64,000 bases of DNA, from sequence record MW822007.1; one strand, given 5' to 3'. This document shows positions 18,069 to 20,609 of the stretch, piece after piece; the first letter of the stretch is position 1, and every line of letters begins with the position of its first letter. Both the position numbers and the translations under genes were made by a program. This DNA comes from Escherichia phage BF15. The notes below the pieces were generated by a model. The model did no database searches. It had not been told where the DNA came from and saw only the letters and a program-made list of their open reading frames with translations.

Positions 18069-18087
18069 AACTTTATGCAATCTTTGG

Positions 18088-18118
18088 AAAATAAAAAAGG
18101 ACTCCCGAAGGAGTCCTC
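18088..18118 (-). terminator. Rho-independent terminator (minus strand)
   Basis: GGACTCC-CGAA-GGAGTCC hairpin then TTTTTTATTTT on the minus strand. Confidence 0.6.
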
Positions 18119-18121
18119 AAC

Positions 18122-18340
18122 TTATGCTTTCTGCTTACCAAAACGAGAAGCATCATCTCGAAGAACCGCACGTGCTCGGCGCATGATCTTCTCAACAGTT
18201 TGATTGATACGAGAGTTCGACCCACGCTTGTAACCAGCGCGTTTAGAATCACCAACTTTCTTTTCAACTGCTTTCTTTGCTTTAGCTTGTTTTGCCATTA
18301 TAAATTCTCTTTTAAATGAAAATGCAGGACTTATTGGCAT
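18122..18340 (-). CDS. Small basic hypothetical protein (start may be the internal Met near 18298)
   Basis: Track ORF; Lys/Arg-rich MAKQAKAKKAVEKK... Confidence 0.5.
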   Translation of the reverse strand: MPISPAFSFKREFIMAKQAKAKKAVEKKVGDSKRAGYKRGSNSRINQTVEKIMRRARAVLRDDASRFGKQKA

Positions 18341-18694
18341 TGCCTGCGAAAGCCCTCAAGGGGTACTTAGGTTTTGAATATTTACCGACAGGATAACCAT
18401 AAACCCGTCATCATACCTTATAGCTCTTATCTGTTGCACACCGTTAGCTTAAAGGTTCCGGGTTCGATTTCTCGAGGATAAGATATATACTGATGGATAT
18501 ATAGGCCTTGAGGCGTACTCCCAATTGGCCATCACCTCGGGGTAGCATGCACTTGCCGCTATAAGAATAACATTCAAGAGGTACACCATAAAACTGCCGG
18601 GGTCTTAAAACTATAATGATTCGCAAATCATTAATCAGACAGTTCGATGGCTCCTCGATTTTAGCTCACACTAAGGCAGTGAATCTCCAATAAA

Positions 18695-18943
18695 TTACTT
18701 CAGTGTTACCACAAAGTGACGAACTGCTTTTCGTGCAGCAGAAGCCAGAGGCTTAGCATACTTAAGTTCATCTTTTTCCTGAAGCTCAGCAGCTAATGCA
18801 GTTTGAGCAGGATTCAGATGTTTGAAATAACGCAGGATTTCAAGAGCTTCGGCTTCAACATCAATAGATGCGCCATAGTTTTCGTGACCATTATTCCATG
18901 CGTTTCGTTGCAGTTCAAGAGCGTGTTGTAATTGTTTAATCAT
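18695..18943 (-). CDS. rIII: rIII lysis inhibition accessory protein
   Basis: 82 aa as in T4; adjacent to gene 31. Confidence 0.8.
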   Translation of the reverse strand: MIKQLQHALELQRNAWNNGHENYGASIDVEAEALEILRYFKHLNPAQTALAAELQEKDELKYAKPLASAARKAVRHFVVTLK

Positions 18944-19090
18944 TTAAAAATTCTCGTTAGAGATTAAAACTCGGTAGTCACGTTCTTCTGAATTTCATCT
19001 TCTTTCGACAGATCTCTCAGTTGTAGACTACCACATAGAATTGTTCGGTTAACTTATTATTCCGACACCCAATTCATATTATTATTTATA

Positions 19091-19426
19091 TCACTTATAA
19101 AGACACGGAATAGCTTTATAGTGACAGGTAACGAATTTTTGTTTAATTTCTTTTGGCTGCTTAAGACCCAGAGCTACAAAAGGATGCGGAACGTTTCGAA
19201 TTTGACCAACTGGAAGAGAAGTCAAATCACCAACTTCGCAGAAACCTTCAGGAACATCAGGACCAACAGAGTGAACTACACACAGTTCAGGAACTTCACC
19301 TTGAACACGTTTACCGATAATGAGTCCTGATTCTGTAACTTCTTCATCACCGGCTTGTGCAGGTTCAGAAACTAAAATAACATATTCACCGACAGCACGA
19401 ATTGGTAGCTGTTGTACTTCAGACAT
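19091..19426 (-). CDS. 31: Co-chaperonin gp31 (GroES-like)
   Basis: 111 aa as in T4; synteny. Confidence 0.9.
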
Positions 19427-19791: not shown

Positions 19792-20028
19792 TTATTTACC
19801 TATTACAGTTTTAATATGGGTTGTTCCACGTTCTTTAAGAGTGGAAAGCAATTTTTGGCATTTTTCTAAATCAGATTTCCAACTATATGGTCTATCAATA
19901 CAAACCCATTCTGACTTATAATACTGCTTCCATTTAGAGAAAAAATATTTCTTATACTCTACAGCAAATGAAATATTCTCATTAGAATAAGAACTAATTG
20001 CTGTGAGTTGTACCAAACGAAATTTCAT
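19792..20028 (-). CDS. Hypothetical protein
   Basis: 78-aa track ORF. Confidence 0.5.
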   Translation of the reverse strand: MKFRLVQLTAISSYSNENISFAVEYKKYFFSKWKQYYKSEWVCIDRPYSWKSDLEKCQKLLSTLKERGTTHIKTVIGK

Positions 20029-20609
20029 TATTCACCACAGAATTCGTTGATATTTTCCCAATTTAACTTATTCAAGTTTTTCTTAGGAACATTAAACACT
20101 TCAATACCCGCATTTCGCAGAATATCATCCCAGCCAGGTTTATTTTTATCGTATGTTTCACAATAAACCAACTTTTTAATTCCAGATTGAGCTATCGCTT
20201 TTGCACAATCTGGGCAAGGAGAAAGTGTTACATACATAGTAGCACCTTCAATTGAAGAACCATTTCGTGCAGCAAACAAAATCGCATTTAGTTCAGCATG
20301 AATTTCATTTTTAGACGACCATTCAGAGTGAGCGCTGCGGTGTTCTTTCGCCAAAACAAAACGATCAGTTGAACAAAATGATACACATTCGGGCTTATGA
20401 CCTTGAATGATAGTATGTTTAGGCTTATTCAGCAACCAACCTTGCTCAGCAGCATAATCGCAGCAATTCACACCACCAGCCGGAGAACCGTTATATCCAG
20501 TAGAAATAATACGTCCATTCTTTTCAATTACTGCTCCTACCTTCCAGGAGCAACACTTTGATTCTTGTGATACTAAATATGCAATTTGAAGTACTGTACT
20601 CGCTTTCAT
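20028..20609 (-). CDS. cd: dCMP deaminase
   Basis: 193 aa; HAE...PCPDC zinc-binding deaminase motifs. Confidence 0.9.
   Translation of the reverse strand: MKASTVLQIAYLVSQESKCCSWKVGAVIEKNGRIISTGYNGSPAGGVNCCDYAAEQGWLLNKPKHTIIQGHKPECVSFCSTDRFVLAKEHRSAHSEWSSKNEIHAELNAILFAARNGSSIEGATMYVTLSPCPDCAKAIAQSGIKKLVYCETYDKNKPGWDDILRNAGIEVFNVPKKNLNKLNWENINEFCGE

Follow-up and report, generated by a model that had tools for sequence, protein, structure and literature searches.

Why are the genes rIII and 30.9 of Escherichia phage BF15 (sequence record MW822007.1) separated by 396 nt, and what does this interval encode? We analyzed this question in a 64,000-nt stretch of the phage DNA (hereafter, the window), where both genes lie on the minus strand and the spacer occupies positions 18299-18694. 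An earlier note, made from the sequence of the window, had described this interval as a long, GC-rich spacer and had proposed a small structured RNA, a decayed mobile element, or a regulatory or replication element. The long spacer was borne out, and comparison among phages strongly supported the small structured RNA, as shown by covariation, G-U strand asymmetry, and the lack of a conserved open reading frame (ORF). Only ~145 of the 396 nt make up the conserved RNA. Judged from the aligned sequences, these nucleotides almost certainly encode an RNA domain, hereafter the core, whose structure is under strong purifying selection.

18419-18563, minus strand: predicted conserved structured RNA domain of ~145 nt, from the P1 5' strand to the P1 3' strand, indicated by covariation, conservation, and absence from T4

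BLAST of the 396-nt spacer against 50,697 phage records matched 990 records, of which 179 were covered by at least 80%. The middle block was 84-95% identical in T4-like phages of other genera (Klebsiella, Enterobacter, Citrobacter, Edwardsiella, Serratia, and Erwinia phages), whereas the spacer around the core was unalignable in these phages. Across genera, the core showed 81-93% identity to the window, compared with 58-75% for the coding sequences of rIII, gene 31, and 30.9, indicating that the RNA domain is, in terms of sequence identity, more conserved than the neighboring proteins. EcS1 was the single divergent outlier, with a core 67% identical. Core lengths among the homologues were 132, 135, 136, and 144 nt. 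A covariance model (R1) matched positions 18413-18568, flanks included, with 183 bits and E = 1e-38, and this was its sole match in the 64-kb window. At every locus that we opened, the core lay in the rIII-30.9 interval, on the same strand as the genes, at a genus-dependent distance of ~35-150 nt from the 30.9 start.

Reference T4, where the same neighbors are annotated, has a spacer of 244 nt instead of 396 nt. It aligned to the BF15 spacer as two pieces with the middle absent. The missing block (18417-18569, 153 nt) corresponds to the P1-to-P1 unit, and T4 retains all the other modules together with 30.9. Neither a target-site duplication nor terminal repeats were seen by eye at the boundaries of this indel. 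The GC content was 35.8% for the window, 41.2% for the whole gap, and 44.9-48.1% for the ~150-nt core (top 2.4% of 156-nt windows). Because the gap ends reached only 39%, and rIII (41%) and 30.9 (44%) had similar values, the GC excess previously attributed to the whole stretch was assigned to the ~150-nt core.

The starting fold, a closed multi-helix structure, was obtained with RNAalifold on a MAFFT alignment of 22 distinct sequences and was then refined by hand. In this fold, P1 to P4 form a four-way junction without unpaired junction bases. Its predicted parts are as follows.

18558-18563 with 18419-18424, minus strand: P1, 5' strand UAUAGC with its partner GCUAUA; 3 of 4 P1 pairs double-changed (AU/UA/GC/CG)
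18504-18557, minus strand: P2 arm, comprising GGC/GCC, the internal loop AAGUGCAU / CUCAAG, GCUAC/GUA(C)GC, CCCGA/UUGGG, and the 12-nt loop L2
18525-18536, minus strand: L2 loop GG-UGAUGG-CCAA at the tip of the P2 arm
18529-18534, minus strand: L2 kissing segment UGAUGG, forming 6 bp with the entire P3 loop CCAUCA (18491-18496)
18484-18503, minus strand: P3 hairpin UAUAUAU-CCAUCA-GUAUAUA, 7 bp, with two covarying pairs (AU/UA, CG/UA)
18425-18483, minus strand: P4 domain, with P4 (UCUUAUC/GAUAAGA) and a P4/P5/P6 three-way sub-junction; three covarying P4 pairs
18477-18483 with 18425-18431, minus strand: P4 strands, enclosing P5, P6, and the GCAACA strand
18464-18475, minus strand: P5, UCGA-GAAA-UCGA, loop mostly GAAA; 2-3 covarying pairs
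18438-18463, minus strand: P6 and its 15-nt loop, invariant save for one C-to-U change that retains a G-U pair
18432-18437, minus strand: junction strand GCAACA within the P4 domain

Compensatory changes were observed in 6 of the 10 pairs of the P2 distal helices, such as CCCGA/UCGGG to CUCUA/UAGAG to CGGAU/AUCCG. The 8x6 internal loop of P2 was conserved, and the P4 domain was found to hold an invariant 20-mer, GCUAACGGUGUGCAACAGAU. The first two positions of the L2-L3 pairing covaried (CG in 25 and UA in 8 sequences; then GC in 30, UA in 3, and AU in 1). The pairing read UAUGG/CCAUA in Muldoon, and in EcS1 the two segments were wholly different yet complementary (CAAUGA/UCAUUG). A mini-hairpin that RNAalifold had placed within L2 was dropped in favor of L2-L3 kissing, for which covariation was observed on both sides. 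The arms are unequal in length (~13 bp plus the internal loop for P2, 7 bp for P3), and the L2-L3 pairing may be intramolecular or may be intermolecular. Two further candidates were rejected. A possible 129-132 pair in L6, suggested by mutual information, was seen in two lineages only and would leave a 2-nt loop. For a kink-turn in the P2 internal loop, reading by eye revealed no canonical G-A/A-G arrangement in either orientation.

In the sequence-only MAFFT alignment of the 22 sequences, 98.8% of 1010 cells paired and 18 of 46 pairs were double-changed, and none of 500 column shuffles reached any of the five measures. When the partners were moved by 1-3 columns as a register-slid control, pairing fell to 25-42%. 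A model-based alignment of 34 distinct sequences gave 99.6% of cells paired. This second alignment leans to the covariance model, whereas the MAFFT result is independent of it. Among the pair cells, G-U was counted 34 times and A-C twice; therefore, it is the transcribed (minus) strand that folds. Similarly, the closing pair of P3 was U-G in 32 of the 34 sequences, where the other strand would give A-C.

The same counts, together with compensatory changes in six helices, indicate a folded, transcribed single strand and thus bear on an explanation at the level of DNA, in which the interval would serve as a replication origin or as a site of recombination or packaging, or would be what is left of a mobile element or a tRNA. 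Such an element would suit the cassette-like presence or absence of exactly this unit relative to T4, the module shuffling in this region, and a T-loop-like string on the plus strand. However, the core is single-copy in the window, has the same location across the genera examined, and was not found outside T4-like contigs; the T-loop-like string was not conserved, no repeats were seen by eye at the T4 indel, and ARAGORN identified 0 tRNA or tmRNA genes in the whole window. We therefore consider a DNA-level element very improbable. In particular, the decayed mobile element was judged unlikely from the single copy, the fixed locus, and the structure under purifying selection, and the replication element was not supported.

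Several of the cues that had first drawn attention to the spacer proved to be incidental to this RNA. The T-loop string GGTTCGATT was indeed present at 18461-18469; however, it lies on the non-RNA strand and is complementary to the 3' half of P5 together with the P6 start. Most homologues, including the Klebsiella type, carry GGTCCGATT or GGTCTGATT in its place, and it varies because P5 covaries. The inverted pair CCTCAAGG (18354-18361) and CCTTGAGG (18506-18513) was likewise located, but its two halves belong to separate modules, CCTTGAGG being the complement of the P2 internal-loop strand and CCTCAAGG being contained in hairpin a (see below). A long-range helix between them was rejected, as the complementarity was not kept in Muldoon, PWKp16, and EnC07. 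By arithmetic, an 8-nt inverted pair is expected about once in 396 nt and a given 9-mer ~0.5 times per 64 kb on both strands, so that both cues are at chance level. The signals above chance were cross-genus conservation and covariation, which are invisible from a single sequence.

Next, the coding potential of the interval was considered. The ORFs inside the gap encode 25-60 aa, and the longest (60 aa, TTG start, 18444-18626, minus strand) slightly exceeds the 25-47 aa noted before; the statement that no convincing ORF exists otherwise held, and no ORF was conserved. This 60-aa ORF, and the short coding sequences (CDSs) of 34-64 aa annotated in some GenBank records, would speak for a small protein encoded by the interval. 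However, a six-frame check of the homologue cores revealed a stop codon in every frame but one (a single frame in locus L016), no frame was open across the core among the homologues, and the length changes were not multiples of three. The 60-aa ORF matched no PHROG family, and substitutions compensated pairs rather than following codon position, so no conserved small ORF with coding-type substitutions was found. A small protein-coding gene was thus rejected and is, in our view, extremely improbable.

Short hypothetical-protein CDSs over the core are annotated in JN986846.1, PP889492.1, PV400811.1, PP597396.1, and others (loci L003, L002, L109, and L111). They also occur in ACG-C40 and several Klebsiella phages. 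Their frame and extent vary across records and genera, and they are very probably false gene calls. Among the records listed, none annotates the core as an RNA; the annotation is either nothing, such short CDSs, or rarely a terminator or ribosome-binding-site feature.

The distribution of the core was then analyzed in the same phage records, with tallies made by organism name. The core was present in ~380-416 of the 50,697 records, and rIII in 1116. Klebsiella phages carried the core in ~156-164 records, against 162 with rIII, of which about 160 have it; the corresponding counts were 22-31 of 36 for Enterobacter phages, ~155 of ~640 for Escherichia and Shigella phages, and 0 of 69 for Acinetobacter phages. 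Paracelsus (MZ501096.1), a BASEL phage infecting E. coli K-12, carries the core, as do JS98 and the Klebsiella phages Marfa and Mineola. With the covariance model, no core was detected at the rIII loci of T4, Serratia X20, Yersinia phiR1-RT, Proteus phiP4-3, and Acinetobacter PhT2. T4-like contigs were the only ones to carry the core in pattern scans of IMG/VR and metagenome contigs, and two degenerate two-block scans of IMG/VR for distant relatives returned the same T4-like contigs plus chance matches, which the model rejected. A pattern scan of 185,579 bacterial species genomes (one genome per species) yielded no homologue, and BLAST of the core against E. coli genomes and plasmids yielded no match; a host or plasmid origin was rejected on these grounds. 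A 9-nt likeness to helix 27 of 16S rRNA (GGGAGUACG) was dismissed as too short. These results indicated that the RNA is confined to T4-like phages of Enterobacterales, in single copy and always at the rIII-30.9 locus. Its near-universal presence in Klebsiella and Enterobacter phages and its frequent loss in E. coli phages suggest a host-dependent accessory role.

How the RNA is probably made was read from its gene context. The whole segment is T4-like (Tequatrovirus-type) with minus-strand genes, in which 30.8 and then 30.7 come after the 30.9 terminator.

18695-18943, minus strand: rIII, an ORF call, the upstream gene on the same transcript; found by tblastn in the 1116 phage records
18122-18298, minus strand: 30.9, the downstream gene, a conserved 58-aa basic protein of phrog_1427 (listed function: unknown)
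18097-18118, minus strand: intrinsic terminator 3' of 30.9, from the terminator scan
19091-19426, minus strand: gene 31, upstream of rIII
20028-20609, minus strand: cd, upstream of gene 31

The promoter and terminator scan revealed no sigma-70-like promoter or intrinsic terminator flanking the core, and reading the spacer by eye revealed no T4 late (TATAAATA), middle (MotA box), or early promoter adjoining it. In Citrobacter CF1-type phages, P1 starts ~7 nt past the rIII stop codon, a spacing that can only place the RNA on the rIII transcript. The domain therefore has, as far as these signals can be read from the sequence, neither a promoter nor a terminator of its own and belongs to the rIII-to-30.9 message. 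We also observed TATAAATA, the T4 late-promoter consensus, at 19083-19090 (minus strand), directly 3' of the gene 31 stop and upstream of rIII; therefore, the RNA would be transcribed late in infection too. An in-frame ATG upstream of 30.9 (18338-18340, minus strand) would yield a 72-aa version of the protein, which explains the 72-aa annotations in some T4-like records compared with 58 aa in reference T4. Weak, sub-threshold Rfam matches to Atu_C8 and Phe_leader (31 and 21 bits) at 18083-18166 (minus strand) correspond to the 30.9 terminator, GAGGACUCC-UUCG-GGAGUCCUUUUUU.

Around the core, the spacer is a mosaic of small modules, whose order relative to the core varies by genus.

18614-18633, minus strand: AT-rich 8-bp hairpin TAATGATT-CGCA-AATCATTA, then UAGUUUU; rIII 3' region, ~60 nt past the rIII stop
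18371-18414, minus strand: module b, hairpin GACGGG/CCUGUC with loop GUUxUxGGUYAUC and tail CGGUAAAUAUUCAAAAC; compensatory stem changes, read by eye
18350-18368, minus strand: hairpin a, AAG-UA-CCC-CUUGA-GGG-CUU, containing CCTCAAGG, without a U-run; single-copy in the window
18324-18347, minus strand: 30.9 leader stem GCAGG...CCUGC, with an equivalent GGGAGC...GCUCCC stem in other genera

The AT-rich hairpin was found where it had been reported, but it lies outside the conserved RNA. It was kept in T4 and JS98 and was missing from Klebsiella-type spacers. It is mildly unexpected by chance, was not flagged by the terminator scan (too few G-C pairs), and might act on rIII transcripts as a weak terminator or a site of processing. 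Module b showed stems of GACGGG/CCUGUC, GAC(G)UGG/CCAGUC, GUC(G)UAG/CUAGAC, and GUGGA/UCCAC in different genera, with its loop and its tail CGUUAAAUA..CAAAAC conserved. It begins with AUGAUG, although the length of this mini-ORF was not conserved. T4 has module b as well. In Klebsiella and Serratia phages this module precedes the core, and here it follows the core. Hairpin a, of which a decayed copy lies at 18570-18584 (minus strand), sits directly after rIII or after the core depending on the genus, and before the core in EnC07 and EcS1. The 30.9 leader (18299-18347; also downstream of the core in loci L002, L016, and L024) consists of the stem followed by AUGUAUUUCUCCAAAAUGGAAGA, which encodes a mini-ORF, MYFSKMED, that is in frame with 30.9 in some phages and stopped in others. 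Besides these, a third module, the GNRA-capped hairpin AAUGUUGCC-GNAA-GGCAAGUUAA, was observed after the core in loci L007 and L030 and before it in loci L016 and L050. It occurs in Marfavirus, Karamvirus, and Kanagawavirus-type phages, a further sign of cassette shuffling.

The small hairpins of the spacer resemble stability or processing elements, and the core is GC-rich compared with the genome. Both would agree with a passive stability element, in which the rIII 3' region or the 30.9 5' region blocks exonucleases or RNase E scanning. However, such an element needs neither 20-nt invariant single-stranded stretches, nor a covarying kissing loop, nor 81-93% identity across genera, and the predicted stability of the core was unremarkable. 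We therefore regard this explanation as improbable.

What, then, would the RNA do? The reading that we tentatively favor, on comparative grounds and with less than even confidence, is an autonomous module, which would bind a specific partner via its three-dimensional fold and would act in trans, likely as a stable RNA, rather than as a switch for 30.9. This reading is favored because the domain is self-contained, moves relative to its neighbors, and has no coupled expression platform. As observed, the core precedes the other modules in some genera and follows them in others, and 30.9 keeps its own conserved leader, which is unchanged in T4 without the RNA. In the proposed course of events, the AU-rich flanks would be cut, and the module would most likely persist as a stable RNA. 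It may then act in trans on a host or phage protein, in an accessory, host-dependent role of the takeover or counter-defense type. Several points weigh against this reading. The folding energy of the single sequence was not exceptional (z = -1.4). P6 and the GGC/GCC helix rest on invariant pairs and are thus unproven, and the family offers few independent lineages and narrow diversity. Moreover, the element is always 5' of 30.9 in sense orientation, which fits a cis-regulator too, and its many conserved unpaired bases are as typical of riboswitch aptamers and ribozymes as of protein-binding RNAs.

A regulatory role for the spacer, which had been raised at the outset, is possible. In its most concrete form, the core would be a cis sensor within the 30.9 5' untranslated region, working as a riboswitch or as a leader that binds a protein, where a ligand (metabolite, ion, signaling nucleotide, or protein) alters the read-through, translation, or stability of 30.9 and later genes. 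The constant position upstream of 30.9, sense and on the same transcript, speaks for it, as does the combination of a variable P1 with highly conserved junction and loop bases, an anatomy that aptamers usually show. Loop-loop pairing within a multi-helix junction is a typical feature of riboswitches, for example of the lysine class. However, no platform was coupled to P1. The downstream modules differ by genus, the start codon is 35-150 nt away, no terminator-like hairpin with a U-run was identified, and the leader of 30.9 is its own. The alternative pairings that we tested (module b against P4, and CCUCAAGG against hairpin a) did not covary; for the module b loop GGUUAUCC, competition with the P4 5' strand was rejected since no consistent covariation was observed. 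No riboswitch of Rfam matched. We thus consider a cis sensor possible, albeit unlikely.

The compact fold and its many invariant unpaired bases would likewise agree with catalysis, by self-cleavage or otherwise, that serves to process the message in the stretch from rIII to 30.9, and the four-way junction with touching arms recalls the natural hairpin ribozyme. Phage genomes commonly carry small ribozymes. Nevertheless, no Rfam 15 ribozyme matched the window or five diverged homologues at E = 10, ~145 nt exceeds the length of most small self-cleavers, and no conserved candidate cleavage dinucleotide was identified. A catalytic role is accordingly improbable, about as much so as the passive stability element.

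The genetics of T-even phages has been heavily studied, yet this ~145-nt RNA, with a fold as elaborate as that of a riboswitch or ribozyme, is unannotated among the records listed. It was overlooked most likely because reference T4 carries a clean 153-nt deletion of it. As read from the alignments, the domain is strongly selected, strand-specific, tertiary-structured, phage-specific, and dispensable in some lineages. Nearly all T4-like phages of Klebsiella and Enterobacter, a group with many therapy candidates, have it, and its occurrence in E. coli phages is patchy, a pattern typical of host-interaction or counter-defense functions. Because natural deletion variants exist and Paracelsus carries the RNA, its function is directly testable. 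Whether it proves to be a riboswitch, a ribozyme, a protein decoy, or a self-assembling RNA, any outcome would add a new RNA class, and the minimum gain would be an annotation correction across several hundred records.

Finally, the core was compared with known RNAs. The Rfam check proposed before returned no family: with cmscan at E <=10 against Rfam 15 (4227 models, including riboswitches, ribozymes, the manA motif, and phage RNAs), nothing overlapped the core in the window and five diverged loci. Within T4-like phages, two kinds of element come to mind. The first are rnaC and rnaD, small stable T-even phage RNAs of the tRNA cluster with no assigned function. They stand at a separate locus, and T4 has both of them yet lacks the core. 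The covariance model, run with its filters off over the T4 tRNA/rnaC/rnaD region, returned only noise (best 5 bits, E = 0.5), and kinship was ruled out by these scores. The second is PeSL, a stem-loop directly followed by an early sigma-70-like promoter; such short non-coding modules shuffle among T4-type genomes and mark insertion and deletion sites (PMC4122927). The spacer here shows module shuffling as well; however, the core has no promoter-like hexamers in it or beside it, and it has a 145-nt multi-helix fold with tertiary pairing. No description of the present element was found in the searchable open-access literature, including two PeSL papers and the supplements of a microbiome RNA-motif survey. 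The RNA family is thus unannotated and apparently undescribed in T4-like phages, and it is absent from T4.

Among structured RNAs in general, the natural hairpin ribozyme has a fully paired four-way junction, neighboring arms in contact, and conserved internal loops, all of which have counterparts in the predicted fold. However, the contact here is loop-loop Watson-Crick pairing and not a docking of internal loops, and the loop A and loop B sequences are absent. Neither it nor the other known catalytic cores (hammerhead, twister, twister-sister, pistol, hatchet, HDV-like, VS, and glmS) gave an Rfam match. The lysine riboswitch combines a multi-helix junction, a variable P1, intramolecular kissing of the P2 and P3 loops, a P2 internal loop, and conserved junction bases. 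The core resembles it in the variable closing P1, the L2-L3 kissing, the P2 internal loop, and the conserved junction bases, and it is a conserved, covarying domain of the aptamer type closed by P1. In contrast to this riboswitch, the main junction has no unpaired bases for a pocket, no canonical kink-turn was seen by eye in the P2 internal loop, and neither the Rfam Lysine model nor any other riboswitch model matched. A coupled expression platform is lacking, given the differing downstream modules, the 35-150 nt to the start, and the lack of a terminator-like site.

The last comparison is with the manA motif (of cyanophage and Photobacterium) and other ornate RNAs associated with phages (GOLLD and ROOL). 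As in this group, the core is a phage-encoded RNA, here of <200 nt, with several helices, covarying loop-loop pairings, and no assigned function. By contrast, the architecture is another one, the host range is that of T-even-type phages of Enterobacterales, and no sequence or structure match to any Rfam family was obtained. The kissing loops of manA turned out to join separate molecules, giving pentamers and a 60-mer cage (bioRxiv 10.64898/2026.07.01.735769), and ROOL, GOLLD, and OLE also form homo-oligomers (PMC12286853). Covarying loop-loop complementarity, as expected of a self-assembling RNA, was observed here at two L2-L3 positions and in EcS1, whose loops were replaced yet stayed complementary. 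By analogy, a bolder and rather unlikely proposal is that the RNA is a trans-acting effector, which would work, free of protein, as a sponge or decoy that captures a host factor (such as an RNA-processing or immune protein widespread in Klebsiella and Enterobacter), perhaps as a homo-oligomeric particle assembled via intermolecular L2-L3 kissing, as in manA. If this proposal were true, the core would represent a new class of phage RNA weapon, missed because T4 deleted it.

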